Below, in pieces: positions 5,239-32,146 of a DNA stretch of 64,000 nucleotides. The position numbers and the translations under genes are program-made. Each line of letters starts with the position of its first letter. The first letter of the stretch is position 1. The stretch lies in contig JAVEYW010000005.1 of the NCBI GenBank assembly GCA_034003325.1, forward strand, positions 156,508-220,507, in the 5' to 3' direction. The notes beneath the pieces are model-generated. The model was not told the origin of the DNA. It made no database searches and saw nothing but the letters and a program-made list of their open reading frames with translations. The DNA is from Desulfobacterales bacterium. GTDB taxonomy: Bacteria; Desulfobacterota; Desulfobacteria; Desulfobacterales; JAFDDL01.

Positions 5239-5927
5239 TCCGCTTCCTTGAATCGGTATCCGACGCCCCGGACCGTCTGAATGAGGTCCCCGTAAGCACC
5301 CAGCTTTTTGCGAAGGCCGACGATTTGCACATCCACGCTTCGATCCGTTACCGGATAGTCGTTGCCGCGGACCGCATCCACGATTTGCGTCCGGGTTAAT
5401 ACCCAGCCCGGTCTTTTGGCCAGATAATAAAGGACCTGAAACTCGGTATACGTTAAATCCACGGCTTGTCCGTCCAACAGGACTTCACGTCGTCCGGGAT
5501 GAATGAGCAGCTCGCGAATATGAATAATGTCGTTGACCTCTTCTTTAATCCGTCCCTTGCGGCGCAGCACGGCTTTGACGCGAGCCAGCAGAATTCTGGG
5601 CGAAAAGGGCTTGGTGATGTAATCGTCTGCCCCGAGCTCCAAGCCCGTCACCACGTCCGCTTCCTCTCCCTTGGCGGTCAACATGACGATGGGCGTGTTC
5701 TTCGTGGCGGGATTGCCTTTAAGTTGCTGCGATACTTCAAGGCCATCGAGCCCGGGTAACATCAGATCCAGCACAATCAGATCAAAGTTGTCCCGGTTGG
5801 CAAGCTTCAGCGCCTTTTCCCCGGTTTCGGCACAGGCGGTTTCATAGCCTTCCTTTTCGAGATTGACCCGCACCAGCTCCTGGATGTCTTCTTCATCATC
5901 GACGATCAATATTTTTGCTTTTCCCAT
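5235..5927 (-). CDS. phoB: OmpR/PhoB-family response regulator (PhoB-like)
   Basis: Receiver domain (DDEEDI, DLIVLDLMLPGLDG, K at TAKG) plus a winged-helix output domain (LTYTEFQVLYYL..VRGVGYRF). Translationally coupled to phoR. Confidence 0.85.
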   Translation of the reverse strand: MGKAKILIVDDEEDIQELVRVNLEKEGYETACAETGEKALKLANRDNFDLIVLDLMLPGLDGLEVSQQLKGNPATKNTPIVMLTAKGEEADVVTGLELGADDYITKPFSPRILLARVKAVLRRKGRIKEEVNDIIHIRELLIHPGRREVLLDGQAVDLTYTEFQVLYYLAKRPGWVLTRTQIVDAVRGNDYPVTDRSVDVQIVGLRKKLGAYGDLIQTVRGVGYRFKEAE

Positions 5928-5974
5928 TATTTACCTTCAACCGTGAAGTGCTTCAAGATGAAATTGCAACGGGA

Positions 5975-6091
5975 GCATTACCGGATTGTTAACACCTCGC
6001 AATTGTAGGGGCAGACCTGCGTGTCTGCCCCAGTGAATTATGGTGCACGCCCCCCGCCAAAACAGGGCGGACACACAGGTCCGCCCCTACG
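5975..6091 (+). repeat. Family-2 GC-rich hairpin element, copy lacking first hairpin and right terminus
   Basis: GCATTACCGGATTGTTAACACCTC, followed by hairpins GGGGCAGAC-CTGCGT-GTCTGCCCC and GGGCGGAC-ACACAG-GTCCGCCC. Collinear with 12573-12735. Confidence 0.75.
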
Positions 6092-6108
6092 TCGGCCGCA
6101 ACCCGCCG

Positions 6109-6765
6109 TCATATTTTCGTGTGCCGGACGATATCTCCCTCGACCATATAGACCACTTCTTCGGCGATATTGGTGGCATGATCCGCCGCTCTTTCCAAAT
6201 GGCGTGAAATCAGCAGCAGATTAATATAATAACCGACTCTTCCCTGGCGCGTATTCATGGCCGCTTTGATACGGTCATACGCGGTGACCTTTAATTTATC
6301 CACCTCATCGTCAAGGGTCAATACGCGATAGGCCAGATCCAGATCCATGTTGACCAATGCATCCAGGCTGGTTTTCAGCATGTAGATGACTTTGCTCATC
6401 ATGGAAGCATAATCGAAGCGAAAGGTGTTCTCTTTTTGCTGGGCCAGAATTTCAACCCGTTGCGCGATGTTGACCGCTTCATCGCCGATTCTTTCAAGAT
6501 CGTTGTTGATTTTGATGACCGCCACCAGAAATCGAAGATCCGCCGCCACCGGTTGGTGCAAGGCCAGGGCCTTGAGGCATTCTTCCTCCAGCTCGACCTC
6601 CATCTCGTCGATCTCATAATCCGTGGCAATTATTTTTGCGGCTATTTGCGCATCGTAATCAGCGATCGCCCGGTCCGCCATGTGGACCCTGTCCTCCACC
6701 ACCGCGCCAAGCGCCAGGACCATTTTTTTAATCTGTTCCAGCTCTCTTTGAAAATGTTTTCTCAT
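6109..6765 (-). CDS. phoU: Phosphate signalling complex protein PhoU
   Basis: 218 aa with two PhoU repeats (..ALALHQPVAADLRF..IGDEAVNIA.. and ..ISRHLERAADHATNIAE..). Confidence 0.9.
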   Translation of the reverse strand: MRKHFQRELEQIKKMVLALGAVVEDRVHMADRAIADYDAQIAAKIIATDYEIDEMEVELEEECLKALALHQPVAADLRFLVAVIKINNDLERIGDEAVNIAQRVEILAQQKENTFRFDYASMMSKVIYMLKTSLDALVNMDLDLAYRVLTLDDEVDKLKVTAYDRIKAAMNTRQGRVGYYINLLLISRHLERAADHATNIAEEVVYMVEGDIVRHTKI

Positions 6766-6836
6766 GTTGTTTTCCTATTCGATGCAACCCGATTGCATGA
6801 AACCCTTCTCTTGCCTCAGCTCTGGATACAGCTATT

Positions 6837-6858
6837 ATGTTAGATCCATGTTAGATTC
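6837..6858. promoter_or_regulatory. Candidate Pho box (two 11-bp phased direct repeats)
   Basis: ATGTTAGATCC ATGTTAGATTC, 10/11 identical and exactly 11 bp apart, in the divergent phoU / pstC control region. An 11-bp phased direct repeat is the architecture bound by OmpR/PhoB-family dimers. Confidence 0.35.
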
Positions 6859-6871
6859 GCGCTTTTGTTTG

Positions 6872-6981
6872 ATTAGGCCCTTTACCAGAAACATGCACGC
6901 TTTTACGTGTATATTCGCCGAAGGTGAAAGATGGCTCTTAAGCATCCCAGCATCCCAGCATCCCAGCTTTGCCGGATTAGG
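6872..6981 (+). repeat. Family-1 structured intergenic element, copy A
   Basis: ATTAGG|CCCTTTACCAGAAACATGCACGCTTTTACGTGTATATTCGCCGAAGGTGAAAGATGGCTCTTAA(GCATCCCA)x3 GCTTTGCCGGATTAGG. Near-identical to six other loci. Confidence 0.85.
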
Positions 6982-7192
6982 GGGGATAAGCGCTCCCAAG
7001 AATTGCGACAAGTCATTCGGAAACCGCCAGCTGACGATGACACCTTACAAAGGTCTAATGGGATGCTAATCGTATGCTAACAATTATTTTTTAACGTAAC
7101 GGCAATGTCGGCCATTGGAAAATCAGTCTTCCGGTTTGCCGGCATGATGATCTTTGCAGCTATTTTCGAACGATAACACAAAGGGCGCTTTT

Positions 7193-8581
7193 ATGTCACC
7201 TTTTACTTTGATGCTCACGATTCTTCTGCTATCGATTTTTGGCTACTTCATCGGCAAAAAACGCGCCTTCGCCGTTGCCGAGGGTGTGTCAAAAACAAAA
7301 ACGCTTCATTCCCGGCCTACTTATTACGGCATGCTGACGGCCCTTTGGTGTGGACTTCCCGCCCTTGCGGTTCTGTGCGGCTGGATGGCGTTTGAATCCG
7401 GCATCATCACGCATCTGGTCATTGCCGATTTGCCTCCGGAGATACGAGAATTGCCTGAAAACAGGCGCAATCTCGTCATTAACGATATTCTCAATCTGGT
7501 TGACGGCAATATTCTTTCCAAACAGGTGGATGACACCCTGCGAAGCGCCGCGGACCATTATCGAAATCTCAAAGCAACCAGCAATGCCGCGCTGATCGTA
7601 TGCGCGGTGTGCGTCGGGATGCTGGGCATCGGAATGATCCGCAATCGAATAAAGCCCGCGATGAGAGCAAGAAACCATGTGGAAAAAGTTATCAAGCTAC
7701 TGCTGATCGCCTGTTCCTGCATCGCCATCTTAACGACCATCGGCATTATCATGTCCGTCCTCTATGAAGCGATTCGATTTTTTCATGTGGTGCCGCTTTC
7801 AGACTTTCTTTTCGGACTTCGCTGGAGTCCGCAGATGGCGATTCGGGTCGATCAGGTGGGGTCATCCGGCGCCTTCGGTGCGGTTCCGGTTCTGGTCGGC
7901 ACGCTGCTTATCTCGGGTATCGCCATGATCGTGGCGGTGCCCATCGGGTTGATGGCCGCCATCTATCTTTCAGAATACGCGGGTAAAAAGCTTCGAACCA
8001 TTGCGAAACCCCTTATGGAAATTCTGGCCGGCATTCCGACCGTCGTGTACGGCTTTTTTGCCGCACTGACGGTGGCGCCGTTTATTCGAGAAGTAGGCAC
8101 GTCCATGGGGCTGGAGGTGGCTTCGGAAAGTGCGTTGGCGGCAGGCGCCGTCATGGGCATCATGATCATTCCGTTTGTTTCATCCATTTCCGATGATGTG
8201 ATCAACGCGGTGCCGCAATCGTTAAGGGACGGGGCTTACGGGCTGGGCGCCACCCAATCCGAGACGATTAAACAGGTGGTGTTGCCGGCGGCGCTGCCAG
8301 GGATTGTCGGCGGGATTTTACTGGCTGTTTCCAGAGCCATCGGGGAAACCATGATTGTGGTGATGGCGGCGGGACTTGCGGCCAATATGACGGTAAACCC
8401 GTTGAAAACGGTCACCACCGTGACGGTCCAGATTGTCACGCTGTTGGTGGGGGACCAGGAATTTGACAGCCCCAAAACACTGGCGGCCTTTGCGCTTGGG
8501 CTGCTGCTGTTTGCTGTCACCTTGGTGCTCAATATTGTGGCCCTGCATGTGGTTAGAAAGTACCGGGAACAATACGAGTGA
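7193..8581 (+). CDS. pstC: Phosphate ABC transporter permease PstC (long form)
   Basis: Multi-TM permease with a PstC-type EAA region (LRDGAYGLGATQSETIKQVVLPAALPGI..SRAIGETM). ATG 7193 is preceded by AAAGGG. The track start at 7154 is a TTG without an RBS. Confidence 0.9.
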   Translation: MSPFTLMLTILLLSIFGYFIGKKRAFAVAEGVSKTKTLHSRPTYYGMLTALWCGLPALAVLCGWMAFESGIITHLVIADLPPEIRELPENRRNLVINDILNLVDGNILSKQVDDTLRSAADHYRNLKATSNAALIVCAVCVGMLGIGMIRNRIKPAMRARNHVEKVIKLLLIACSCIAILTTIGIIMSVLYEAIRFFHVVPLSDFLFGLRWSPQMAIRVDQVGSSGAFGAVPVLVGTLLISGIAMIVAVPIGLMAAIYLSEYAGKKLRTIAKPLMEILAGIPTVVYGFFAALTVAPFIREVGTSMGLEVASESALAAGAVMGIMIIPFVSSISDDVINAVPQSLRDGAYGLGATQSETIKQVVLPAALPGIVGGILLAVSRAIGETMIVVMAAGLAANMTVNPLKTVTTVTVQIVTLLVGDQEFDSPKTLAAFALGLLLFAVTLVLNIVALHVVRKYREQYE

Positions 8582-8590
8582 AATAGAGGA

Positions 8591-8643
8591 AGCTGGTAGC
8601 TGGTAGCTGATAGCTGATAGCTGAAAGCTGATAGCTGACAGCT
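8591..8643 (+). repeat. Heptanucleotide tandem array (AGCTGRN)x7.5 in the pstC-pstA spacer
   Basis: AGCTGGT AGCTGGT AGCTGAT AGCTGAT AGCTGAA AGCTGAT AGCTGAC AGCT, read directly from the sequence. Confidence 0.95.
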
Positions 8644-8673
8644 TTCGGTAAAACAGACGCGGGAATAAAAGCC

Positions 8674-9957
8674 ATGACTCAGGAAAATAAAAAGCCGGTC
8701 AGCACTATCGACATTGTCAACCGGAGGCTCCCCAAGCGGTATCGTGCCGAGCGCCGGTTTCGTCTCTACGGGATGATCGCCATTACCGCCAGTTTGGGCT
8801 TTTTGTCCTTACTGTTTATCAGTATTATCGGAAAAGGGTATACGGCTTTTCAACAGACGTTCATTCAATTGAATGTTTTCATGGACCCCTCGATGCTGGA
8901 CCAGACGGCGCTGGCAAATGCGGATTACAACCGGCTGGTGAAACGATCTTTGGAACAGCTTTTCCCCGAAGTTGAAACACGGCAGGATAAACGCAAGCTG
9001 TATCGGTTGGTGAGCTCAGGGGCGGCATTTCAGATTCGCTCGAGCATTTTGAAAGATACGGGCCTTATCGGAACCACCCGGACCCTGTGGGTGCCGGCGG
9101 ATGACAATGTGGACATGGTGGTAAAGGGGCATTTTCGATCCGCGAATGGCAAAGACCATGGCGGACCCTTGAGCGAAAAGGAATTGGAATGGATATCGCG
9201 GCTTCAATCCGAAGGGCGCCTTGAAAAACGATTTAACCGGACCTTTTTTACCGGAGGTGATTCCAGAGAACCCGAGCTGGCCGGTATCTGGGGGGCGGTG
9301 GTGGGGTCCTTCCTGACGCTGATCGTCACCCTCATCCTTTCCTTTCCCATCGGTGCGGCCGCAGCCGTATACCTGGAAGAATTTGCGCCCAAAAACCAGT
9401 GGACGGATCTGATCGAGGTCAATATCAACAATCTGGCCGCCGTGCCCTCCATCGTGTTCGGATTGCTGGGACTGGCCGTTTTTTTGAATTTTTTCGGTCT
9501 TCCCCGCTCGGCGCCCATTGTGGGGGGGCTGGTGTTGACGCTCATGACCTTACCCACGATCATTATTGTCGGTCGAGCGGCGCTTCAGGCGGTGCCGCCG
9601 TCTATTCGAGAGGCCGCCCTGGGTGTCGGGGCTTCGGGGATGCAGACGGTCATGCACCATGTGTTGCCTTTGGCGCTTCCCGGCATGTTGACCGGAACGA
9701 TTATCGGGATGGCGCGGGCGCTGGGGGAAACTGCTCCTTTGTTGATGATCGGCATGGTTGCGTTTATTGTGGATATTCCCGGCAGCATCACGGACCCCGC
9801 CACTGTGTTGCCCGTTCAAATTTTTTTATGGGCGGATAGCCCTGAGCGGGCTTTTATTGAAAAAACGTCTGCAGCGACCATGGTGTTGCTGGCCTTCTTG
9901 ATTGTTATGAATTCAGCGGCCGTCATTTTAAGGCGCCGCTTTGAGCGTCGCTGGTAG
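8674..9957 (+). CDS. pstA: Phosphate ABC transporter permease PstA
   Basis: TM permease with a large first periplasmic loop and the PstA-type region IREAALGVGASGMQTVMHHVLPLALPGM..ARALGETAPLL. Confidence 0.9.
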   Translation: MTQENKKPVSTIDIVNRRLPKRYRAERRFRLYGMIAITASLGFLSLLFISIIGKGYTAFQQTFIQLNVFMDPSMLDQTALANADYNRLVKRSLEQLFPEVETRQDKRKLYRLVSSGAAFQIRSSILKDTGLIGTTRTLWVPADDNVDMVVKGHFRSANGKDHGGPLSEKELEWISRLQSEGRLEKRFNRTFFTGGDSREPELAGIWGAVVGSFLTLIVTLILSFPIGAAAAVYLEEFAPKNQWTDLIEVNINNLAAVPSIVFGLLGLAVFLNFFGLPRSAPIVGGLVLTLMTLPTIIIVGRAALQAVPPSIREAALGVGASGMQTVMHHVLPLALPGMLTGTIIGMARALGETAPLLMIGMVAFIVDIPGSITDPATVLPVQIFLWADSPERAFIEKTSAATMVLLAFLIVMNSAAVILRRRFERRW

Positions 9958-10097
9958 AAATACAAGTTGAAGGCGAGCGCCGCTAATAAAACAATCATTC
10001 GGCGCTAACATTGTTTGAATATTGAAATACGAATATGAACCGACGTTAGCGAACTCGTCGCGGAATATAAACCAAACGCTTAAGGAGGAAAAAAGAA

Positions 10098-11153
10098 ATG
10101 TTGAAAAGGAAAATCGGTACGTTTACGGCGGCTCTCTTTATTGCCGGATCACTGGGTCTGGCGCATGCGGAATCGGCGCGGGACTATATCAGCATTGTCG
10201 GCTCATCAACGGTATACCCGTTTGCGACCGTCGTGGCCGAACAGTTCGGAAAAACAACCTCATTTAAAACGCCCAAAATCGAATCCACCGGAACGGGCGG
10301 CGGCTTTAAACTTTTTTGCGCCGGTATCGGTGTTGAGCACCCCGATATCACCAACGCTTCCCGGGCGATCAAAAAGTCCGAGTGTGAAAGCTGCGAAAAA
10401 AACGGCGTAAAAGAAATCGTTGAGGTTAAAATCGGGTATGACGGCATCGTGGTGGCCAATTCCAAGAAAGCACCCGTGATGAAGCTGACCCGAAAAGAAA
10501 TTTTTCTCGCATTGGCCAAGGATGTGCCCGACGCCAAAACAGAGGGAAAGCTTGTGGCCAACCCGCATAAAACTTGGAAAAGTGTCAACCCCTCTCTGCC
10601 GGATGTAGAAATTGAAGTTCTCGGACCGCCGCCGACCTCCGGTACTCGGGATGCGTTTGTGGAACTGGCCATGGAAGAAGGCGGGCAAGCGTTCGGGTGG
10701 ATTAAGGCATTGAAAAAGTCGGACGAGAAAAAGTTCAAATCCATTTGCCATACGATTCGTGAAGACGGTGCTTATGTTGAAGCCGGTGAAAACGACAACC
10801 TGATCGTGCAAAAACTCGACGCCAATCCCGATGCGTTCGGTATCTTCGGCTACAGTTTTCTGGAACAAAACCAGGATAAAATTCAGGGCTCCGTCATCGA
10901 AGGCGTTCAACCGAATTTCGATGCGATTGCCTCCGGCAAGTACGCCGTATCCAGGCCCCTGTTTTTCTATGTCAAAAAAGCCCATGTCGATGTCATCCCG
11001 GGTATTCGGGAATATCTCAAAGAGTTTACGAGTGAAAAAGCCTGGGGACCGGAAGGGTATTTGAGTGAAAAGGGTTTGATTCCGATGCCGGACGCGGAAC
11101 GGAAACAATACAGCGACAACGCGAAACACCTCGTCCCGGTCAGCATGAAATAA
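10098..11153 (+). CDS. pstS: Phosphate ABC transporter substrate-binding protein (PstS family)
   Basis: AAGGAGG RBS. Signal peptide (..GLAHA/ES). PBP-like motifs GSSTVYPF and GPPPTSGTRDAF. Confidence 0.9.
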   Translation: MLKRKIGTFTAALFIAGSLGLAHAESARDYISIVGSSTVYPFATVVAEQFGKTTSFKTPKIESTGTGGGFKLFCAGIGVEHPDITNASRAIKKSECESCEKNGVKEIVEVKIGYDGIVVANSKKAPVMKLTRKEIFLALAKDVPDAKTEGKLVANPHKTWKSVNPSLPDVEIEVLGPPPTSGTRDAFVELAMEEGGQAFGWIKALKKSDEKKFKSICHTIREDGAYVEAGENDNLIVQKLDANPDAFGIFGYSFLEQNQDKIQGSVIEGVQPNFDAIASGKYAVSRPLFFYVKKAHVDVIPGIREYLKEFTSEKAWGPEGYLSEKGLIPMPDAERKQYSDNAKHLVPVSMK

Positions 11154-11272
11154 GGGTGTCAAAGAACCACGGTGTATTTATTCTATCGATGGTTTAGGCA
11201 TTATGTTTGCTTTGCTTATCCGTCTATGAGGCCAGGATAAAAACGGCCGTAGCGATGAACAAAAACTGAATG

Positions 11273-11375
11273 CCCCAAAGGGGCTATGTAACATAGCCCA
11301 GGGTTGCGGCGCAGGCCGCTACCCTGGGTAAACCACGAACAAACCAATGAACCATCAACCCCAAAGGGGTTGTGT
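11273..11375. repeat. Cluster of GC-rich hairpins (REP-like) in the pstS-pstB spacer
   Basis: CCCCAAAGGGG; GGGCTATG-TAA-CATAGCCC; CCCAGGGT-TGCGGCGCAGGCCGCT-ACCCTGGG (with nested GCGGC/GCCGC); CAACCCC-AAA-GGGGTTG. Confidence 0.55.
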
Positions 11376-11474
11376 AAACTTGACGAAGGACCGGTGACAT
11401 TGTACCGTCAAGGGCACGGCAGTTCCGTCTTAAAATTTTTTTAATCAGCGGGTTAAATGGAATCGATTTTGGAA

Positions 11475-12350
11475 ATGAAAGACCGTACGACCATACCGGG
11501 GCGGGCAAGCGTCAAGCCGACAGCGGAAAGAGCGGAAGGCGGCATCGCCGTCGGCCGTGATGTACGGGAAACCGTGGGCGAGTGGCAGGTTGAAAATCCG
11601 CGCATGGCGTGTCGGAATGTGAATGTTTATTACGCGGAAAAACAAGCGATTAAAAATGTGTCTTTGGATATCGGACGCAATGAAGTGATCGCCATGATCG
11701 GGCCTTCAGGCTGCGGGAAGTCCACGTTTATTCGATGCTTGAACAGAATGAACGATACCATTGACGGGTGCCGCGTCACCGGACAGATCACCCTGGACGG
11801 AATGGATATCTACGGGGAAAAAGTCGATGTGGTGCCCCTGCGTGCGCAGGTGGGAATGGTGTTCCAGAAACCGAACCCGTTTCCAAAGTCGATTTTCGAT
11901 AATGTGGCCTATGGCCCGAGAATTCACGGCCTGGCGAAAAACAAGGCGGAGTTGAACGAACTGGTCGAGATTTCCCTGAAAAAAGCAGGGCTCTGGAATG
12001 AAGTCAAAGACCAACTAGATCACCCGGGAACCGGGTTGTCCGGCGGCCAGCAACAGCGGTTGTGCATTGCTAGAACCATTGCCGTGAGCCCGGAAGTCAT
12101 TCTGATGGACGAACCTTGTTCCGCGCTTGACCCGATCGCCACGGCAAAGATCGAAGATTTGATTGACGAGCTAAGAGAACAATTTACCATTGTCATCGTG
12201 ACGCACTCCATGCAACAAGCCTCCCGCGTTTCCCAGCGAACCGCCTATTTTCACTTGGGCGATCTGATCGAGGTGGGCACGACCATTCAAATATTCACCA
12301 AGCCACGGCATCAGCTTACCGAAGATTACATCACCGGGCGGTTCGGATGA
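11475..12350 (+). CDS. pstB: Phosphate ABC transporter ATP-binding protein PstB
   Basis: Walker [10 protein letters not shown], signature [13 protein letters not shown], Walker [13 protein letters not shown], PstB-type C-terminus EDYITGRFG. The start is uncertain; ATGs at 11457, 11475 and 11604 are all in frame. Confidence 0.9.
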
Positions 12351-12572
12351 TTTGGTCGTACTAAACGCTGGAAGCTGGGCGGCTGGGCTGCTTGGCGGCA
12401 AACGGCCTTCTCCGATGATACACACTTTATCCCCCCAACACACGCCGCGTATTTTATCCAAAAACGCCGAAATAAATTGTTTGAAACGAGTTAGCCTTGC
12501 TTTTGATGGCAGGCGGTAGACCATCGGTTGTTCCGAATCGAACGTTGTTTTTTTAAAGCTTTCGTGTGGGCG

Positions 12573-12779
12573 CATTACCGGTTTGTTAACACCTCTGGAT
12601 CAACACGGTATAGGGGCGAACCTGTGCGCGCGCCTATTGCCTTTGTAGGGGCAGACCTGCGTGTCTGCCCCCGTGAATCATAGTGCACGCTCCCCGCCCA
12701 ACCCAGGGCGGACACACAGGTCCGCCCCTACGTTGACCGCGACGCCATGGATGTTGTTTTCATAAACAAACCGGTAATG
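12573..12779 (+). mobile_element. Family-2 MITE-like element, full copy with 15-bp terminal inverted repeats
   Basis: The left end CATTACCGGTTTGTT (12573-12587) is the exact reverse complement of the right end AACAAACCGGTAATG (12765-12779). The interior carries three GC-rich hairpins. No coding capacity. Confidence 0.7.
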
Positions 12780-13029
12780 GTCCTTTTCGTATTCGCGTTT
12801 GGGCACCACTGCAAAAAGAAGATCAAAATAAACCGGCTCATAGAGGACTAATCCTTCTTTAATCTTGCCAAAACAAAACTCGTCCAAAAGTAAAACCGTC
12901 TCTCTGATTTCCCATGGCGGTCATAGCTCATATAACCGGCTCAATCGATGGGGGCAGGGCAAAAAAAACAGGAAGAAGGTCATTATCTGGTTGGAAGTAT
13001 TTATCTATTTAATTTAAAGGAGGAGATTC

Positions 13030-14295
13030 ATGAAAAAGAGGTTGGCACTATTCTTCGCGTTGGCGGCACTTTTGTTGATAGCACCGTTTGCGGGAGCAGC
13101 GGATTATAATCAGGAGCTGATCCTTCGGGAGCTTGAATACCTGAAGCAAAAGGTGAAATTCCAGGAAATGGAAATTCAACAACTCAAAGGCGCGACCGGA
13201 GATGCACTGGATAAGAAGATAGAGGAAAAAGTCGATACCAAGATCGCAACCGGGGAAAGCGCAAAGGTTTCCCTTGCCAATGAACTGATCGACCAGCTTG
13301 AAATAAAGGGGGATTTAAGGGTCCGTTATGAAAGAATGGATCGGGACAATCCTGCCGATGATTACGATGCTCAGAATCGGTGGCGAACCCGGTTTCGCGT
13401 GGGCGGTGTTTGGAAAAACAAAACCGAAAACTGGGAGATAGGCGCGGGCTTGGCCACGGGCGGTATCGATGGCACCAGCACCAACGACACCTGGGGGGAA
13501 GAATCTCCGTTCGAGACTGGTGACATTCGGCTCGATTATGCCTATGCCAAGCATAAGATGGAGTCATTTTCTTTTATTCTCGGTCAGCAAAAAAATCCAT
13601 TTGAGACCTCTTGGTTATATTGGGACGGCGATTTGAGACCGACCGGTTTTACCGCCAAATATAAAAGTGATGTTGGTGTGTTTGCCACCTTGGGCGCCTA
13701 CGGGGTTCGTTTTTATAAAAACGACAAAGACACGGCCATGCTCCTCGGTGGCCAGGTCGGCTATGAAAATATAATTGGAGAAGTCGAATTGTTGGCCGCT
13801 GTGGGATACCAGCATTTCGATAGTGAATTCAGTGATGAACAAGCACCCAACCCCGATTATGATTATCAGCTCGGCGATCTTTATGTTGAGGCAACCATTC
13901 CGGCCGGTGCGGTCAAATTAACCCCCTATGGGCATATCTGGTGCAATTTCGGAGCGGATGGTGAGGATGGAGAGGGTCAACTGGGCGGTACGCTGAACCC
14001 CGGGGATGAGGATCTGGGATGGCTGATCGGGTTGGACGCAAAAATCATGAAGTTGTTCAAGGTTGGATATGCCTATGCGGTTGTCGGCGCGGATTCCCTT
14101 TATGGCGGATTGAAAGATTCCGATTTTGGCGCGGGTTTGAGCTCTACAGACTTAAAGGGGCATAAAATCAGCGCTTCTTACAGCATGACGAAAAATATCA
14201 GCACCGGCGTTACGGCCTTCTTTTATGAAGCCGATGCAAGGGAAAACCAGAAAGACGTTGATCTTTATCAATGCGATGTCGTCTATAAGTTCTAA
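13030..14295 (+). CDS. Outer-membrane beta-barrel porin (putative) with N-terminal coiled coil
   Basis: AAAGGAGG RBS. Signal peptide (..PFAGA/AD), heptad-like LRELEYLKQKVKFQEMEIQQLKG, alternating beta-strand pattern rich in G/Y/D, C-terminal ..DVVYKF. Lies next to the pst genes. Confidence 0.7.
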   Translation: MKKRLALFFALAALLLIAPFAGAADYNQELILRELEYLKQKVKFQEMEIQQLKGATGDALDKKIEEKVDTKIATGESAKVSLANELIDQLEIKGDLRVRYERMDRDNPADDYDAQNRWRTRFRVGGVWKNKTENWEIGAGLATGGIDGTSTNDTWGEESPFETGDIRLDYAYAKHKMESFSFILGQQKNPFETSWLYWDGDLRPTGFTAKYKSDVGVFATLGAYGVRFYKNDKDTAMLLGGQVGYENIIGEVELLAAVGYQHFDSEFSDEQAPNPDYDYQLGDLYVEATIPAGAVKLTPYGHIWCNFGADGEDGEGQLGGTLNPGDEDLGWLIGLDAKIMKLFKVGYAYAVVGADSLYGGLKDSDFGAGLSSTDLKGHKISASYSMTKNISTGVTAFFYEADARENQKDVDLYQCDVVYKF

Positions 14296-18871: not shown

Positions 18872-18943
18872 TTTCTACCTCTTTTCTTTTTCCGGTGAAC
18901 GGGATGCGCATCCAAGCCAAACGATATTATTGCCGAAGCAGCA

Positions 18944-21014: not shown

Positions 21015-21290
21015 ATGGTGGAAGAAACAGTTAAATGCCCGTCCTGCGGATCCACGGCATATTACCAATACGGCCGGGTAAAGAATGGTAAAAAGAGGCG
21101 CTTGTGTCTGAGTTGTAACCGGCAGTATGTCGTTGAAGGGAGGCCGGCAGATATCTTGAGTCGACCTCGATGCCCGGTATGTAATGCACCGATGCATGTT
21201 TATAAACGGGAGGCGGCCTTGACGCGATATCGATGTAAGTATTATCCCGAATGTAAAACGTTTGTAAAGATCCAGAATAAAGAGGAATAA
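21015..21290 (+). CDS. Double zinc-ribbon protein (91 aa)
   Basis: Four CxxC pairs: CPSC..CLSC and CPVC..CKYYPEC. The second half resembles topoisomerase-type C4 fingers. Confidence 0.55.
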   Translation: MVEETVKCPSCGSTAYYQYGRVKNGKKRRLCLSCNRQYVVEGRPADILSRPRCPVCNAPMHVYKREAALTRYRCKYYPECKTFVKIQNKEE

Positions 21291-21300
21291 GGAGGTATCA

Positions 21301-21669
21301 ATGAGCTACTATGTTCATCATACACCGGGAAGATTGCGAATACGGATTCCCGCGATACGGAACAATCCCCGAAAGGTGGATGCGGTCAAAACGATTTTGG
21401 ATATTCGCGGAACGGAAAGGGTCGAGGTGAATCCGTTGACCGGAAGCGTCGTTATTACTTATGATGCAGCCGTTATCAACTCGCAAGAGCTGTTTAACGT
21501 GTTGCAACATCATGGGTTCTATAGTGAGGGGCGCGCCATCACGCTTGATGCACAAATTCAGCAGGCCAGTCACAAGGCGGCTCGCAAGGTGGGTCGGGCC
21601 TTTTTTGGCTGGGCCGTCGGCAGGGTTCTGGAAGACAGTGGACTGGCGTTCATTGCGGCGTTAATTTAG
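21301..21669 (+). CDS. HMA2-like (heavy-metal-associated-like, no CxxC) domain protein
   Basis: AAGGAGG RBS. HTPGRLRIRIP...VEVNPLTGSVVITYD is the same pattern as the N-terminus of the ATPase at 23486-26566 and of the ORF at 26825-27325. Confidence 0.6.
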   Translation: MSYYVHHTPGRLRIRIPAIRNNPRKVDAVKTILDIRGTERVEVNPLTGSVVITYDAAVINSQELFNVLQHHGFYSEGRAITLDAQIQQASHKAARKVGRAFFGWAVGRVLEDSGLAFIAALI

Positions 21670-21707: not shown

Positions 21708-22259
21708 TTATCCGGAATCGGAGGTGCGGGCAGTATTTCGTTTTTTTTCAAGTCTACCAATCCTTCCTTCAAAGCCTGTTTTTGTTCCGTTTTTTAATCC
21801 ATACGACAACGCCTTGTTACAGAGGATAATCGCTTCATCATAACGTTTATCTTCTTCCATTGCGATAGCCGCCAATTTAAATGTTTCAATGCGCCCGGGG
21901 CGGTCATTTCCGGATTGGCCGATTGCTGTCAGCACGGTGGGAATCATGTCGATGTGCCGGCCCGAGTAGCGGTAGAAGGCCTCTCTGGCGGCTGGTTCGG
22001 ATCGCATGCGATAATATATGGCAACAATTCGTGTAAGAAGCGCGTCTTGAAGCAACGGGTCGTTTGTCGCCTCAAGCAGCGCGGTCATCATCGTTATGTC
22101 TCCGGAAGCCAAGGCGTTTTCAACATTTTCCCGAATCCTCACAATGGAATTTACGTCACCTGCCGGTCGGGATTTTTTTCGTTTTAAAGTGTTTATACCC
22201 TTTAATAGAAGATAAAGGAGCCCCCCTAAGCCGCTTACGGAAATCCAAAAAAAACTCAT
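21708..22259 (-). CDS. Membrane-anchored helical-repeat (TPR-like) protein
   Basis: GGAGG 5 nt upstream of ATG 22259. One N-terminal TM (FFWISVSGLGGLLYLLL) followed by a helical soluble domain. Last gene of the ATPase operon. Confidence 0.5.
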   Translation of the reverse strand: MSFFWISVSGLGGLLYLLLKGINTLKRKKSRPAGDVNSIVRIRENVENALASGDITMMTALLEATNDPLLQDALLTRIVAIYYRMRSEPAAREAFYRYSGRHIDMIPTVLTAIGQSGNDRPGRIETFKLAAIAMEEDKRYDEAIILCNKALSYGLKNGTKTGFEGRIGRLEKKRNTARTSDSG

Positions 22260-22286: not shown

Positions 22287-23468
22287 TTACAACGGGTCGA
22301 TTGCGCCCGTTTTTTCCCATGGAAGCGCAATATCTTCCCGCCCGAAATGGCCGTAGGACGACAGCCTTTGAAAAAAGCCATCCGGATGCCGGGCAGGCAG
22401 ATGCCTGAGTTCAAATGCCTTCAGAATGCCGGCCGGTCTGAATTCAAAACGCTCCTGAACCAGATCGGTTAGATGTTGATCTGATTCTCGTCCCGTGCCG
22501 AAGGTGTTGACCATAATCGATACCGGTGCGGCCAGACCGTTAGCATAGCTCACCGCGACTTCGCAGGATGTCGCCAAACCGGCCGCCACCAGGTTCTTGG
22601 CCGCATACCGGGCCGCGTAGGCGCCGATCCTATCCACCCGCATCGGGTCTTTACCACTGAGGGCCTTACCGCTTTGGCGGGCGTACTCGCCGTAGGTGTC
22701 AACGGCGTTCTTCCGGCCGGTTAGCCCGGAATGATTTAAAGGACCACCCAAATAAGGGCCGTCGGGGTTGACATTCACCCATGTTTTCTCATCGGGTGTA
22801 ATCGCCATGGAATGAAACACCGGGGTGACGACCGCATCGAGCAGATCCTGTTTCAGAATTTCCGTATTCGGGTTGCTCAAGTGTCGCGTGTGAATTTCCA
22901 TCGTGATGCTGTGAATTCGATACGGTATTCGCTGCTTATATTCTACGCCCACTTGAACCTTGCTGTCCGGCATGAGGTAGGGAAGCACCCTTTCTTTTCT
23001 AACTGCGCTCAAGCGCTGCGTTAGCCGATTGGCCAGAAATATGGGCAGCGGCATAAGTACGGGACTTTCGTTTGTGGCATATCCGAATACAGTCACCTGG
23101 TTTCTGGCCGGGATGTTGTTTATTTCGGAATCCGAAAGGGTGCGTTCGTCAAAACGGCTGCTTTCATCGATCGCCGCGGCCTGCGGCGACGTGAGAATAC
23201 TGCAGTTTTTCGGGTTGAATTCCGGCTGATCATACCCGATCCGTTTAATGACCTTTCTGGCCACATGCGTCAAATCTACGGTAACGGTGGAAGCAAATCG
23301 CGCAGCGATAAAGACGATGGCGCCCGAAACGGCACACTCGCAGCGAACCTTTGAACAGGGTTCAAGCGCGAGAAAATGATCCACCACGGCATCGCTGACC
23401 TGATCGCATAGCTTGTCGGGGTGGCCTTCGGTTACGGATTCGGAGGTGAAAACAAAATTATCAATCAT
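22287..23468 (-). CDS. S-adenosylmethionine synthetase (MetK) family paralog with degenerate signature motifs
   Basis: Clear MetK fold (SESVTEGHPDKLCDQVSD, GLTGRK, SGKDPMRVDR, AAYAARYAAKNLVAAGLA, YGHFGRE). However, GAGDQG reads ARNQVT, GGPxGD reads GGPLNH, and GGGAFSGKD reads QSGKALSGKD. Starts 17 nt after the ATPase stop. Confidence 0.8.
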   Translation of the reverse strand: MIDNFVFTSESVTEGHPDKLCDQVSDAVVDHFLALEPCSKVRCECAVSGAIVFIAARFASTVTVDLTHVARKVIKRIGYDQPEFNPKNCSILTSPQAAAIDESSRFDERTLSDSEINNIPARNQVTVFGYATNESPVLMPLPIFLANRLTQRLSAVRKERVLPYLMPDSKVQVGVEYKQRIPYRIHSITMEIHTRHLSNPNTEILKQDLLDAVVTPVFHSMAITPDEKTWVNVNPDGPYLGGPLNHSGLTGRKNAVDTYGEYARQSGKALSGKDPMRVDRIGAYAARYAAKNLVAAGLATSCEVAVSYANGLAAPVSIMVNTFGTGRESDQHLTDLVQERFEFRPAGILKAFELRHLPARHPDGFFQRLSSYGHFGREDIALPWEKTGAIDPL

Positions 23469-23485
23469 AATAGCTCCCCATGGCG

Positions 23486-26400
23486 TTAAACAGGTGTCTT
23501 TGCACCCTCTACTTCAGGTTTTCGAATATGGGATTTCGTTTTTGCCGCTTCATTGAACAACAGGGGTAAAACGGAGGTGCCGGCGATAACGGCCAGATCC
23601 ATCAGGGCGGGCGCCTTAAGGCCCAGCAACGAGCGAAGCGGCGGAAAGACCATTGTCAGCGCCTGCAAGGCCAGAGAGCCGCCGACCGCGATGCGCAGAT
23701 AGGGGTTGGCGGCCGTCTTCCTTCGGCCGAACAAGCTGGCATGCTCCGAGCGGCAACTGATCGCGTGCAGCAGTTGTGCGATGGTGAGGCTCTGAAAGGC
23801 CAACGAAGCAGCCCCGCTTCCGAGTCCGTATCGCGCAATCCCATAGCCGTATGCGGCCAGGGCCCCGCCGGTGATGGCCGCGGACTCGCGGGTCATTTGA
23901 AGGAAATCACCGGCTGAAAAGAGGGGCGCGGCCGTCTGGCGCGGGGGCCGGCTCATTACATCGTCTTCGGCCTCCTCCATCGCAAGGGCCAGCCCGGGAA
24001 AGATATCGGAAATAATGTTGATCCATAACAGTTGCATGACGTTTAACGGGAACCCGATGCCCAAGGCCATGGCGGCCGTCATCAGTATGATTTCGCTGAT
24101 GTTGGTGGACAGAAAAAAGTGAACCGATTTGCGAATATTGACATGAATGGTCCGGCCGTCTTTTAGCGCCAGCGCCAGTGTTTCCAGGTCATCTTCCTCC
24201 AGTACCATATCTGCGACATCCCTGGCCACATCGGTGCCTGTTTTGCCCATTGCAATGCCGATATCCGCGGCTTTGAGCGCGGGGCCATCGTTAATGCCGT
24301 CTCCGGTCATGGCCACAGTGACGCCGGCTGACTGCAGCGCTTGGACAATCTGCAACTTGTGCGCGGGACTGACCCTTGAATAAACGTGAGCCTTGGTGGC
24401 CAGCGCCTTGAGGGTTTCCGGATTTACAGCGGACAGATTCGATGAGTCGAGAATTTCGATAGGCCCGTCAGCGGCCAGATTCAATTGTTCAGCAATGGCA
24501 AAGGCGGTCGAGCTTTGATCGCCGGTGATCATGATGGTGTCGATACCGGCGCGATGGAATACCTGAATCAACGGCTGAACCCCCGGTCGAATCGGGTCCG
24601 CCATTCCCACCAATCCCAGCCAGACCAAATCTGAATCGTTCTCCACTCCCGTATCATCTGAAAACCGCTTATAAGCAAACCCAAGCACGCGCAGCGCCGC
24701 CGAAGCCATCTTTTCATTTTCGGATTCGATCGAGAGCCGCCTTGCGTCCGTCAACGGCTGTACAGCGCCGTTTACAGCCTCGCTGCTGCACATGGCCAAA
24801 ACTTCCGGCGGGCTTCCCTTGGTGTAACCTATCCGGTCATTTTCAGGCGTTCTGTGCAACGTGCTCATGAAAAGGCGGTTTTCGGATCGGTGATTGATCT
24901 CCAATCGGCGATAATCATGATTCATTCGGTGAATGTTAAAGCCGGCATCGATGGCCAGTTGCACCAGGGCTTTTTCAGTGGCGGAGCCGAACAACTCGAT
25001 TTGTCCCGATGCATTCGTCCCGTTGAGCTTAACCTCATGACATAGGGCGCAGGCTGTAATGAGTTGTAACAGGCCCTCATCGGTCGATGGATCGGCTGAT
25101 GAGGCATTGCCGGCGGTCAGACGACCGTTGGCGACGTTGTAGCAATGTTCCCCGGCGCAGATGCGCTGAACGGTCATGAGATTACGGGTAATGGTTCCCG
25201 TTTTGTCCATACATATGGCTTGAACGGCGCCCAATGTTTCCACCGCATGTAAATGCCGGATCAACACGCGATGCTTGCGCAGTTTTTTAATACCGAGAGC
25301 GAAATTGATGGTGGCGGCAGCCGGCAACCCCTCGGGAACGGCGGCCGCCGCCAGGGATATGGCCATTCGCAACATGGTTAGAAAACCATATCCCTGAAGC
25401 AAGCCGATGAGAAACACGACGCTGCAGATACCCCCGCACATGAGCACCAGATGGTCCCCCATTTGCCTCAATTGCCGTTCAATCGGCGTTTCCGGCGTTT
25501 CCGTCCGGTTGAGCATCATCTGAATATGACCGATTTGAGTGGCTTCGCCGGTTGCAACCACCACGGCGAGGCCTTGCCCGCCGGTGACCAGTGTTCCCAT
25601 ATAAGCCATGTTGGTACGGTCTGCCAGCGCGATATCGGCCGCTGTTAACCGTCCGGCATGCTTATCCACCGGCAGGCTTTCGCCGGTGAGCATGGATTCG
25701 TCGATACTTAAATGAGCCGCCGAAAGAATTCTAGCATCCGCGGCGACATAAGCGCCGGGTTTAAAGACGAGTATATCACCAGCCACGACGGATTGGACGG
25801 GAAGCGCCCTTGTTTTGCCATCGCGTATCACCTCGGCATGGGGTCGTACCAGGCTTTTGAGCGAATGGATGGTTTTTTCCGCCGCGCTTTCCGTAAAATA
25901 GCCGACGACCGCATTGGCGACCACCACCCCCATGATCACAGCCGCATCAAATAGCCCTCCGGTCAATACCGACACCCCGGCCGCAGCGCCCAAAAGATAA
26001 ACGGGCAGGCTGTTCATCTGATTCAAAAAGATTTGCCAGCCGGATCTCGGTTCGGCTTCAGGCAGCAGATTCGGGCCGTATTCTTTCAGAAGGGAATCGG
26101 CGAATCGATCGGACAATCCGAGTTTGTCGGAAGAGTGAAGCGTTTCAAGAATGGATCGGCTTTCCATTAAATGCCATTTTGGATTGTCACCTGTTTCCGG
26201 CGGTATCGGCAATGGGGTTGAATTTGTTTTTGGGCGCGCCTGTCTTTGTTTCCCTTTCGAGTTGTCACCCCTTCGAGGTCGAATCACTCGTTGCGAAACA
26301 ACGGAATTTTCCGAGTCCTGGATATATGTTTGAACGATCTGTTGAATGATTACCGCAACCGAATGGTGATTGTTATTCGAATTGTAAGACACCAGCAGGT

Positions 26401-26566
26401 TGCCGGTAATACAGCTTGCAGATGCCTTAATAATAGCGGAATCACGGCTTAGCTGATGCTCCAGGTATTGTTTGACGCCCGGTTCGTGTCGAAGACCCGG
26501 AATTTTAAAACGGGCGCGACCGCTCACCTTGGTATGGAGGGGTTGAATCGATGGCATGCTAAACAT
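23486..26566 (-). CDS. P-type (P2-like) cation-transporting ATPase with N-terminal HMA2-like domain
   Basis: TGES, PEGLP in TM4, CMDKTGTITRN, MITGD and GDGINDGPALKAADIGIAMG. Cation_ATPase N- and C-terminal regions. The first ~80 aa contain GRARFKIPGL...ASCITGNLLVSY. Confidence 0.9.
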   Translation of the reverse strand: MFSMPSIQPLHTKVSGRARFKIPGLRHEPGVKQYLEHQLSRDSAIIKASASCITGNLLVSYNSNNNHHSVAVIIQQIVQTYIQDSENSVVSQRVIRPRRGDNSKGKQRQARPKTNSTPLPIPPETGDNPKWHLMESRSILETLHSSDKLGLSDRFADSLLKEYGPNLLPEAEPRSGWQIFLNQMNSLPVYLLGAAAGVSVLTGGLFDAAVIMGVVVANAVVGYFTESAAEKTIHSLKSLVRPHAEVIRDGKTRALPVQSVVAGDILVFKPGAYVAADARILSAAHLSIDESMLTGESLPVDKHAGRLTAADIALADRTNMAYMGTLVTGGQGLAVVVATGEATQIGHIQMMLNRTETPETPIERQLRQMGDHLVLMCGGICSVVFLIGLLQGYGFLTMLRMAISLAAAAVPEGLPAAATINFALGIKKLRKHRVLIRHLHAVETLGAVQAICMDKTGTITRNLMTVQRICAGEHCYNVANGRLTAGNASSADPSTDEGLLQLITACALCHEVKLNGTNASGQIELFGSATEKALVQLAIDAGFNIHRMNHDYRRLEINHRSENRLFMSTLHRTPENDRIGYTKGSPPEVLAMCSSEAVNGAVQPLTDARRLSIESENEKMASAALRVLGFAYKRFSDDTGVENDSDLVWLGLVGMADPIRPGVQPLIQVFHRAGIDTIMITGDQSSTAFAIAEQLNLAADGPIEILDSSNLSAVNPETLKALATKAHVYSRVSPAHKLQIVQALQSAGVTVAMTGDGINDGPALKAADIGIAMGKTGTDVARDVADMVLEEDDLETLALALKDGRTIHVNIRKSVHFFLSTNISEIILMTAAMALGIGFPLNVMQLLWINIISDIFPGLALAMEEAEDDVMSRPPRQTAAPLFSAGDFLQMTRESAAITGGALAAYGYGIARYGLGSGAASLAFQSLTIAQLLHAISCRSEHASLFGRRKTAANPYLRIAVGGSLALQALTMVFPPLRSLLGLKAPALMDLAVIAGTSVLPLLFNEAAKTKSHIRKPEVEGAKTPV

Positions 26567-26824: not shown

Positions 26825-27325
26825 TTACCTGTCGATATCGATCGTCCGGTTTAATTCGTCGTAGAGCGACTTTGAAAAAAGTCCGAATGCGTACCAGAAC
26901 GCGGTGTACCAAGGTGGTCGTCTGAAATTACCAATGGCCAATTCCCACACGCCAAAAATCAGGAGAAGGAGAAACAGTGCACCAGGCAAATCCAGCGCAC
27001 CGTCCGACAGCACATTAATTCCGCAATTTACTTTTCTGATGGGCGCGGCGATGCGTTCGGCAAGCTTTTTGGGTGCCGGCGTGCCGGGGGTAATCAGAAA
27101 TAATTGGCGTTGGGATGCGATGGAACGCACCGCTTCAATGTTGACCGAGTCGTTCTCTATTACCAAGCAGCCCGTTAGCGCCGAAACCGTTATGGTGGAT
27201 GATGAAAGCGCTTCTTTAAGCCAATTTTCAACCTTTTCAAAATAGGCTGAATCCCCTCTTTTCGACATAACTTGAAGACGCAACCGTCTTCTCAGGCTGT
27301 GTTTAATCGTCGCTTCCGGTAACAT
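26825..27325 (-). CDS. HMA2-like domain protein with C-terminal membrane segment(s)
   Basis: RRRLRLQV...VSALTGCLVIEND pattern, then the hydrophobic stretch LPGALFLLLLIFGVWELAIG. Confidence 0.6.
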   Translation of the reverse strand: MLPEATIKHSLRRRLRLQVMSKRGDSAYFEKVENWLKEALSSSTITVSALTGCLVIENDSVNIEAVRSIASQRQLFLITPGTPAPKKLAERIAAPIRKVNCGINVLSDGALDLPGALFLLLLIFGVWELAIGNFRRPPWYTAFWYAFGLFSKSLYDELNRTIDIDR

Positions 27326-27372: not shown

Positions 27373-27624
27373 TCATTCCGGTGTGCTTTCGTTTGCCTGC
27401 AAAATCTCGGATTTGGCTTCAGCCGCCAAATCTTCGAGGGTTTCCTTGGTTTCGGCAATGGTCACCTTGACCCCTTCATAGGCAAGCAGCCCGCCCTTGA
27501 TGATGGCCTTGGCCAGAGGTTTCAGTATGCTGCCGACTACGGGAATAATAACGGGTGCAAGGAGCACGACACCCGCGCCGATGGCAATGTTGCCTACACT
27601 TAATCCGCCGCTGAAAATCTTCAT
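27373..27624 (-). CDS. DUF5132-like small membrane protein (83 aa)
   Basis: GGGAGG 6 nt upstream of ATG 27624. Gly/Ala-rich TM (GNIAIGAGVVLLAPVIIPVVG) followed by an amphipathic acidic helix (LEDLAAEAKSEIL). Assignment is from recalled family appearance only. Confidence 0.5.
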   Translation of the reverse strand: MKIFSGGLSVGNIAIGAGVVLLAPVIIPVVGSILKPLAKAIIKGGLLAYEGVKVTIAETKETLEDLAAEAKSEILQANESTPE

Positions 27625-27767
27625 GCTGCACCTCCCTTTAAAATATATCGTGTGAGACACATGGTTTTACCCTATCATTCGTAATCGAAAAAAGTCGATA
27701 CAAACTTTCATTACTTTACCTACCGGATGAGGGGTTCCCCCGGGTTGGTCGGAGAGAAGCCGTTGGA

Positions 27768-32064: not shown

Positions 32065-32146
32065 TCCGCGCCCAATCGCAATCTCCCAATATACATTCGG
32101 TCGTATTTAGGCCGATATCGTTGATCCATAACAGGGGAGAATGCGT

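Follow-up and report, generated by a model that had tools for sequence, protein, structure and literature searches.

Within a 64-kb stretch of a contig from a Desulfobacterales metagenome-assembled genome (MAG) (assembly GCA_034003325.1, contig JAVEYW010000005.1; hereafter the window), a gene for a P2-type cation ATPase (23486..26566, minus strand) is directly followed by a gene of the same strand (22287..23468) that encodes a 393-aa paralog of MetK, the S-adenosylmethionine (SAM) synthetase or methionine adenosyltransferase (MAT). All three Pfam MetK domains (PF00438, PF02772 and PF02773) are matched with E-values of 4e-52, 5e-32 and 9e-31, and the protein (MDX9786518.1) carries the GenBank name methionine adenosyltransferase because its score against the TIGR01034 metK model exceeds the cutoff, by a narrow margin (371.1 vs 309.4 bits). 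HMMER alignments to solved MATs and a MAFFT alignment to E. coli MetK recover the blocks GHPDK, GLTGRK, SGKD..VDR and YGHFGR, so that the MetK fold and retained motifs recognized by eye in a first-pass annotation of this DNA are borne out. An AlphaFold2 model built from 62 family sequences has a mean predicted local distance difference test score (pLDDT) of 90 and a predicted template modelling (pTM) score of 0.90, and Foldseek superimposes it on MAT crystal structures with TM-scores of 0.87-0.92; the model thus predicts an intact three-domain MAT fold. The two genes are separated by 17 nt (23469..23485), as stated in the first-pass annotation, and this spacer holds the Shine-Dalgarno sequence GGGGAG. 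No Rfam family, and hence no SAM riboswitch, is matched anywhere in the window, and no sigma-70-like site is predicted 5' of the MetK-like gene, in agreement with the earlier view that the gene has neither a riboswitch nor a promoter of its own. A tblastn search with E. coli MetK, run on the DNA of the window and of 25 loci, found no second MetK-type gene in any of them.

Several signature motifs of MAT are rewritten in the window protein: GGEITT reads AARFAS, GAGDQG reads PARNQV, GGPMGD reads GGPLNH and HGGGAFSGKD reads QSGKALSGKD. In E. coli MetK numbering, which is used throughout unless a window codon is given, the changes comprise E55R, Q98A, S99A, G117R, D118N, G120V, D238H, G258S, G260K, F262L and K269R; the equivalent of I102, a position that varies across the clade, is E, and the gating loop is longer than in E. 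coli MetK and variable in sequence and length among homologs. Both kinds of alignment confirm the E55R, D118N, D238H and QSGKALSGKD changes of the first-pass annotation; its D118N assignment was correct, but the register of the GAGDQG motif was off by one residue (PARNQV, not ARNQVT). The K269R substitution (codon R277), the loss of Q98 and S99, and the longer gating loop came in addition. In published structures, the amino group of methionine is held by Asp238 and Glu55 and the carboxylate by Gln98 and Lys269, Ile102 touches the methionine side chain, Phe230 stacks on the adenine and the ribose hydroxyls are bound by Asp163 and Asp238 (PMC3853416, PMC1282579, PMC6850014), with His14 acting as the catalytic acid (PMC1282579). 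S99 serves as a gating or adenine sensor. The replaced methionine ligands thus include codons R57 (E55 equivalent, amino group; 23298..23300), H246 (D238 equivalent, amino group and ribose O3'; 22731..22733) and R277 (K269 equivalent, carboxylate; 22638..22640), and codon N123 (23100..23102) stands for D118 of the GAGDQG motif, all on the minus strand. Retained are H14 (codon H16, 23421..23423, minus strand), D16, K17, E42, D163, K165, the aromatic residue at 230, R244, K245, K265, D266 and D271. This set includes the ligands of Mg2+ (D16 and D271) and of K+ (E42) as well as R244, K245 and K265, which bind the triphosphate. Given the methionine roles that the published structures assign to the altered residues, the changes fall exactly on the methionine half-site and leave the ATP, triphosphate and metal half-site intact. 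The description of the protein in the first-pass annotation as having eroded catalytic signatures therefore does not hold: H14, D16, K17, E42, R244, K245, K265 and D271 are all kept, and only the methionine contacts have been re-set, throughout the clade. We also observed that codon C45 (23334-23336) corresponds to T43 changed to a Cys that is nearly invariant in the clade and adjoins the K+ ligand Glu, and that His has been gained at position 238 and, in most clade members, at 237 (N245, 22734-22736, and H246 in the window); C43, H237 and H238 could, with Glu42, form a new metal site.

The same substitutions recur in the 120 closest database proteins, which are 58-79% identical to the query and come mostly from Desulfobacterales MAGs. 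Position 238 is H, 269 is R and 262 is L in all 120; 258 is S in 115, 55 is R in 106 and H in 11, and 118 is N in 102 (S in 10, H in 4, T in 3 and D in a single protein). Positions 14, 16, 17, 42, 244, 245 and 265 are likewise unchanged in 120 of 120 homologs, D271 is present in 118, and this close subfamily also keeps K or R at 165 (120/120), D163 (119/120) and an aromatic residue at 230 (117/120). Such a recurring pattern is far beyond chance. Pairwise ratios of nonsynonymous to synonymous substitution rates (dN/dS) against three orthologs are 0.08-0.16, with dS near saturation, and the gene is under purifying selection. Because the same new residues are found across a large clade under purifying selection, the pattern is best read as re-specification of the second-substrate site and not as decay. 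By eye, the signature motifs do look degraded, as they might in a decaying pseudogene or if the resemblance were due to chance or misalignment; the probability of this explanation is negligible, and it is ruled out by the intact open reading frame (ORF), the low dN/dS, more than 120 orthologs with identical swaps, the AlphaFold2 model and the synteny described below.

A more serious question is whether the protein could still be a SAM synthetase, divergent and dedicated to this gene cluster, for instance feeding the radical-SAM enzyme encoded at 17325-18641, or even the sole MetK of the genome. The score above the TIGR01034 cutoff and the database name that follows from it agree with this possibility, as does the radical-SAM gene only 3.6 kb away, and the human Q113A mutation (equivalent to Q98) on its own barely affects MAT activity (PMC6850014). 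However, all direct methionine ligands have been replaced together here, D238 and E55 among them, and each of the human substitutions D258G and K289N in MATa1 (equivalent to D238 and K269) and S114A in MATa2 (equivalent to S99) by itself abolishes SAM synthesis, with phosphatase activity being kept (PMC6850014). Mutants of the E. coli gating loop likewise lose SAM formation and keep the phosphatase, so that the two activities are independent (PMC6850014). Moreover, neither the annotated loci nor the leading neighbour families include the radical-SAM gene. The E. coli variants D118N and D238N are reported by Taylor and Markham to lose about 10^3-fold in SAM synthesis, whereas H14N and K165M reportedly retain tripolyphosphatase activity. 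Furthermore, the clade is patchy and accessory in its distribution across phyla, and the window protein is only about 42% identical to E. coli MetK, compared to 52-60% for canonical MetKs of other phyla. We therefore consider a dedicated SAM synthetase very unlikely, and SAM supply to the radical-SAM gene was rejected as a general explanation, that gene not being conserved near the MetK-like gene elsewhere. Of the two alternatives put forward in the first-pass annotation, neofunctionalisation fits far better than a divergent SAM synthetase. Canonical methionine binding would seem impossible for this protein, which is probably not a SAM synthetase.

An exhaustive HMMER scan of 1.84 billion representative proteins yielded 17,291 members of the MetK superfamily. 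Among the best 150 of these, a wider set shares C43, R or H at 55, H238, R269 and L262, with some members only 41-53% identical to the query. Placed in a MetK phylogeny, as the first-pass annotation had proposed, this H238/R269 set forms a single clade of 36 sequences in a neighbour-joining tree (bootstrap 54/100); H238 is present in 34 of 34 wider-clade members. The replacements of methionine contacts across the clade are mostly to basic or hydrophobic residues (E55 to R or H, Q98 to L, S99 to P, D118 to N, D238 to H and K269 to R, with I102 variable), and position 118 varies in the wide clade. Several distant members have lost K165 (replaced by Q, T or V) and the adenine-stacking residue at 230, and the triphosphate and metal ligands are never lost; for this reason, the constraint common to the whole clade appears to be the Mg-triphosphate site. 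Two long MetK-like proteins, P0131 and P0296, were searched for domain fusions that might hint at a function and contained MetK domains only. In one locus from a 'betaproteobacterium' MAG (L019, 1194-2362), the MetK-like gene aligns as three separate tblastn pieces, which suggests frameshifts due either to pseudogenization or to long-read assembly errors.

These patterns bear on the possibility that the protein works as an adenosyltransferase on a new nucleophile. It would still cleave the C5'-O5' bond of ATP but pass the adenosyl moiety to a substrate other than methionine, probably an anionic one held by R55, H238 and R269, or to water, giving adenosine and tripolyphosphate (PPPi), in the service of the pump module. 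The near-invariance of His14, K/R165, D163 and the aromatic residue at 230 in the close subfamily is what such an activity would call for, and the change of the two acidic amino-group ligands to R/H and H resembles an inversion of the charge of the pocket and not its loss. Nevertheless, distant members with the same linkage to the pump have dispensed with K165 and F230, the adenine sensor S99 is gone, the gating loop varies in sequence and length, and the neighbourhood includes no conserved candidate substrate pathway. Accordingly, we regard this explanation as unlikely.

The product of the upstream gene is a P2-type cation ATPase of 1026 aa with an N-terminal HMA_2 (CoBaHMA-like) domain. It contains the motifs DKTGT, TGES and PEGLP as well as SERCA-type ligands in transmembrane helices 4, 5 (N..E) and 6 (N..D), and among solved proteins it is closest to SPCA1 and to LMCA1, a Ca2+-ATPase of Listeria (E-values of 5e-142 to 1e-110 among P2A Ca2+-ATPases). 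Its best NCBIfam match is the PMR1-type model TIGR01522 (606 bits vs a cutoff of 798), and it scores below every equivalog cutoff. A scan of species-representative genomes identified 17 close-subfamily loci, in Desulfosarcina, Desulfatibacillum, other Desulfobacterales, one Desulfuromonadaceae, one 'Nitrospira' and one 'betaproteobacterium' MAG, to which two long contigs and five distant clade members were added. An orthologous P2-type ATPase is encoded immediately upstream of the MetK-like gene in every one of the 21 loci with enough upstream DNA (the window included), and this holds for all five distant members and for relatives only 41-45% identical. In 19 of the 21 loci, the ATPase stop codon and the MetK-like start codon overlap or abut by 1-17 nt; the window, with its 17-nt gap, and L029, with a 69-nt gap, are the exceptions. 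The coupling to a cation pump asserted in the first-pass annotation thus turns out to be stronger than could be seen from a single locus. The gene arrangement indicates that the MetK-like gene is translationally coupled to the ATPase gene in a linkage that is both ancient and tight.

Stoichiometric subunits are typically encoded in this manner, by obligately adjacent and translationally coupled genes. Together with the loss of the methionine half-site, this is what would be expected if the MetK-like protein were a catalytically silent pseudoenzyme, the ligand sensor of the first-pass annotation, which would use the old site only to bind Mg-ATP, K+, Mg2+ or polyanions and would act on the ATPase as an allosteric regulator or scaffold. 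For the CoBaHMA domains of the same module, a regulatory role in anion binding has itself been proposed. Loss of catalytic residues is usual in pseudoenzymes; here, by contrast, the catalytic and metal ligands are all invariant among sequences that are otherwise only 40-60% identical, but binding alone could impose the same constraint on the ligands. On balance, a purely regulatory role seems to us rather improbable.

Many loci encode another P-type ATPase nearby that shares 35-38% identity with the first (L005-L007, L010-L014, L016 and L017, at about 12.2-15.9 kb; L027, 9652-12336; L030, 6334-9033). An N-terminal HMA_2 domain was confirmed in this protein where checked (L005), and no MetK-like gene is paired with this second pump. 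Across L005-L017, which are Desulfobacterales loci, the second ATPase gene is preceded divergently by a conserved ORF of about 74 aa (L1_94-like) and a CTAAY box (see below).

The ATPase and MetK-like genes are embedded in a conserved module with the order DUF5132 membrane protein, HMA_2 protein of about 165 aa, HMA_2-ATPase, MetK-like protein, transmembrane/tetratricopeptide repeat (TPR)-like protein of about 185 aa and, on the other strand, a second HMA_2 protein. Optional components are a 63-aa protein with an Na_Ca_ex exchanger after the MetK-like gene in some loci and, often, the second HMA_2-ATPase; in distant members, the DUF5132-HMA_2 pair is located on the other side of the ATPase-MetK-like pair. 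The first gene of the module in the window (27373..27624, minus strand) encodes the 83-aa DUF5132 protein (PF17195, E-value 3e-12), which is conserved in 14 or more loci; the ORF as called mechanically extends to 27660, and homologs and the ribosome-binding site favour the ATG at 27624. It is followed by a stand-alone HMA_2 (PF19991) protein of 166 aa (26825..27325, minus strand) with an N-terminal H-x3-RRRLRL basic signature and orthologs in the same position in 14 loci. Between this gene and the ATPase gene lies a gap of 258 nt (26567-26824) with terminator-like hairpins at 26822-26810 and 26684-26671 on the minus strand, and in relatives this gap holds CTAAY boxes, such that the ATPase and MetK-like genes may form a bicistron with regulation of its own. 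Beyond the MetK-like gene, a 183-aa protein (21708..22259, minus strand) with an N-terminal transmembrane helix and a weakly TPR-like helical part has orthologs 3' of the MetK-like gene in at least 11 loci, and the second stand-alone HMA_2 protein (122 aa; 21301..21669, plus strand) is encoded convergently with the module. In the HMA_2 domains, a conserved His precedes a basic beta1 strand (H..GRxRxR/K), with the sequences H..GRARFKIP, H..RRRLRLQV and HHTPGRLRIRIP. Because this signature matches the one described for the CoBaHMA domains of calcyanin, we infer that PF19991 HMA_2 corresponds to the published CoBaHMA family.

Upstream of the DUF5132 gene, a conserved element, TAGGTAAAGTAATGA, followed by the -35-like hexamer TCGACT (27693..27722, minus strand), is present as the same block in about 12 related loci (including L001, L005-L008, L010, L011, L013-L015 and L018). 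Its consensus, TAGGyAAAnnAATGA, is non-palindromic and is located about 10 nt before a -35-like TCGACA (window copy, 27708-27722); it probably represents a dedicated promoter or activator site of the module. There is a single exact copy of the element in the window, so that no regulon can be derived from it. Among other genes close to the module, we noticed a 91-aa ORF (21015-21290, plus strand) that ends 10 nt before the second HMA_2 gene and, with four Cys pairs (CPSC, CLSC, CPVC and CKYYPEC) and no Pfam match, resembles a zinc ribbon or IS1 InsA. An ArsA-family ATPase with a C-terminal ArsA_HSP20 domain is encoded directly upstream of the module in L005, L006, L008 and L013 (at about 4.1-5.5 kb), a ParA/ArsA-like gene comes right after the MetK-like gene in L002, and an HSP20/ArsA_HSP20 protein is encoded nearby in L028. 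Na_Ca_ex exchangers are found in or next to the module in the Desulfosarcina-type loci L001 (11451-12482), L003 (2018-3004) and L004 (5752-6708), and other divalent-cation transporters, of the CorA-like ('Nitrospira' MAG) and MgtE kinds, accompany it in L015 (11199-12197) and L029 (1633-2700).

The wider surroundings of the module point to phosphate starvation. A complete Pho island at 3421..14295, 7-24 kb from the MetK-like gene, comprises genes for a PhoR-like kinase (3421-5238), a PhoB-like regulator of the OmpR family (5235-5927) and PhoU (6109-6765), all on the minus strand, followed by pstC (7154-8581), pstA (8674-9957), pstS (10098-11153), pstB (11457-12350) and a gene for a Porin_5 porin (13030-14295); the order pstC-A-S-B is unusual. 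On the other side, the module is adjoined by a gene for an OlsF-like ornithine-lipid synthase, a bifunctional acyltransferase (27768-29657, minus strand), whose score of 398 bits against the NF052615 cutoff of 620 leaves room for the enzyme to make a different aminolipid, as it may do, and by phoH2 (29990-31390, plus strand). These flanking genes are typical of phosphate limitation. The stop codon of the OlsF-like gene lies just 46 nt upstream of the conserved promoter motif of the module. Between the Pho island and the module, the minus-strand genes at 14755-20749 encode a GT4 glycosyltransferase with an N-terminal extension of about 430 aa (weak PHP match), the radical-SAM protein, which matches no specific family, and an EAL-CBS-GGDEF protein; none of the three is conserved beside the module in other genomes. 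In a survey of 87 neighbouring ORFs from 11 other loci, in which the family counts are descriptive, the recurrent neighbours included phosphonate-binding ATP-binding cassette (ABC) systems (3), alkaline phosphatase (2), inositol monophosphatase (4), OlsF-type acyltransferases (2), monogalactosyldiacylglycerol synthase (2) and ArsA-like ATPases with an HSP20-like domain (4). Also present, in the annotated loci, are PHO4 together with PhoU_div, PhoD beside a phosphonate ABC system, and alkaline phosphatase alongside pyrophosphatase.

The region between phoU and pstC contains tandem CTAAY boxes at 11-bp phasing (7044-7081, plus strand; 6839-6854, minus strand). Direct repeats phased in this manner are the known architecture of PhoB/PhoP-type boxes, and we consider the CTAAY boxes candidate Pho boxes for this lineage. 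The exact pattern CTAAY-N6-CTAAY occurs six times in the window, always in intergenic regions; the copies outside the phoU-pstC region are located at 31590-31605 (plus), 38234-38249 (minus) and 1271-1286 (plus). In relatives, CTAAY boxes are found less than 260 nt before the ATPase gene in L005-L008 and less than 400 nt before the DUF5132 gene in L001, L002 and L018, and most of the others lie in the region from which the 94-aa gene and the gene for the second ATPase diverge. The promoter regions defined for the module amount to 10 kb out of 334 kb and hold 13 of the 26 exact hits (Poisson P about 1e-19). If the CTAAY boxes are indeed Pho boxes, the regulon would gain the operon 31714-36608, a ferric-reductase-like/YceI pair (38282-40463) and a methyl-accepting chemotaxis protein at 1358. 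The operon consists of a 116-aa ORF, an 808-aa ORF without a Pfam match, a phosphatidylserine decarboxylase-like gene and an LGT-like gene.

Taken together, these observations lead us to favour, tentatively and with slightly less than half of our credence, the interpretation that the protein is a MAT homolog that has been neofunctionalised and become methionine-blind, still binding or cleaving Mg-triphosphate and serving as the partner of the pump. Because the constraint shared by the whole clade appears to be the Mg-triphosphate site, the old site would still bind Mg-ATP or Mg-tripolyphosphate and probably cleave it. Such an activity would correspond to the tripolyphosphatase half-reaction of MAT, with PPPi, short polyphosphate or the triphosphate of ATP as possible substrates. 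Through the new basic residues, the pocket that once held methionine would now serve as an anion-binding extension. As a cytosolic partner of the pump under phosphate limitation, the MetK-like protein would link phosphate or polyphosphate turnover to the export of divalent cations; more speculatively, mobilisation of polyphosphate or import of metal phosphate might free divalent cations for the pump to remove, and the CoBaHMA domains might sense the polyanion.

Several points weigh against this interpretation. The function is predicted from sequence and genomic context, and the ion moved by the pump is likewise suggested by similarity only, with scores below all NCBIfam equivalog cutoffs. His14 is invariant, even though a pure tripolyphosphatase would not obviously need it, and with K165 and the aromatic residue at 230 kept in the close subfamily, adenosyl transfer from ATP is conceivable. 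No mechanistic rationale connects the hydrolysis of PPPi with a pump, and the bootstrap value of the wide H238/R269 clade is only moderate. In addition, the module of the window itself has no exact CTAAY box, nor one within a single mismatch, so that the link to the Pho response in the source genome comes from adjacency.

Comparison with known systems sets off the unusual features of the module. The MetK-like protein shares with canonical MATs such as E. coli MetK and human MAT2A the three-domain fold, the GHPDK, GLTGRK, SGKD-VDR and YGHFGR blocks and the catalytic and triphosphate residues, but its methionine contacts are replaced, and it has altered GAGDQG and GGG loops and a longer, variable gating loop; the gene has no riboswitch and is always located 3' of a P-type ATPase gene. 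The protein resembles the SAM-dead, phosphatase-competent MAT mutants in the positions affected and in its intact triphosphate site (PMC6850014); those mutants, however, carry single laboratory or disease changes, whereas the changes in the MetK-like protein are natural, combined, directed towards basic residues and conserved in a clade. The pump gives its best sequence matches to the P2A Ca2+-ATPases SPCA1/PMR1, LMCA1 and SERCA and shares with them the DKTGT, TGES and PEGLP motifs and the N/E and N/D ligands of transmembrane helices 5 and 6, but differs from them in its extra N-terminal CoBaHMA-like domain and obligate downstream MetK-like gene. With the P1B ATPases of the CopA-CopZ type it has in common the architecture of a pump with an N-terminal HMA-superfamily domain accompanied by separate small proteins of the same domain; unlike in those systems, the pump is P2-type with Ca2+-like ligands and the HMA_2 domains are basic instead of containing CxxC. 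To our knowledge, no MAT-like partner exists for any P1B system. Duplicated or associated metabolic proteins have become dedicated partner subunits elsewhere, as in the trypanosome S-adenosylmethionine decarboxylase (AdoMetDC) prozyme and MAT2B, but the prozyme lost its catalytic residues, which the MetK-like protein keeps, and the partner here is a membrane pump and not the protein's own paralog.

The closest parallel in gene content is the neighbourhood of ccyA, the biomineralisation marker gene for calcyanin, in cyanobacteria that form intracellular amorphous calcium carbonate. In Microcystis, genes for DUF5132 and CoBaHMA proteins flank ccyA and a Ca2+/H+ exchanger, and in both settings DUF5132 and CoBaHMA/HMA_2 genes stand next to Ca2+-type transporters, with Na_Ca_ex exchangers in some variants of the module. 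In contrast to the cyanobacterial neighbourhood, the module occurs in Desulfobacterales and other non-cyanobacteria, and the transporter is a P2-ATPase fused to an HMA_2 domain. No calcyanin was identified among the module genes, which carry no GlyZip-type annotation (no search with a calcyanin model was made), and in the literature searched no MetK-like gene is reported in a ccyA neighbourhood. That literature also contained no description of the MetK-like clade or of a MAT-like partner of a P-type ATPase, and the clade is apparently undescribed so far. A broader proposition, which we find possible but doubtful, brings these strands together: the methionine pocket would be inverted into an anion site, and the protein, docked physically to a Ca2+-type pump that is gated by CoBaHMA, would either process tri- or polyphosphate or adenosylate a new anionic nucleophile. 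With the DUF5132 and HMA_2 proteins it would belong to a Pho-regulated machine in which the mobilisation of phosphate or polyphosphate is coupled to the export or sequestration of divalent cations, and which would be evolutionarily related to the calcyanin gene set. This would be the first function other than SAM synthesis for the bacterial and eukaryotic MAT fold.

MAT is treated as a family with one function, and annotation pipelines accordingly call the MetK-like protein a methionine adenosyltransferase. The conserved clade described here points to a possible new job for the MAT fold. If the clade is indeed re-specified, it would expose a systematic mis-annotation and offer a natural experiment on the uncoupling of the two half-reactions of MAT. 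The MetK-like protein would also be the first enzyme-like accessory partner of a P2-type ATPase, and phosphate starvation and the handling of divalent cations would provide a testable setting for the poorly understood CoBaHMA/DUF5132 gene set.

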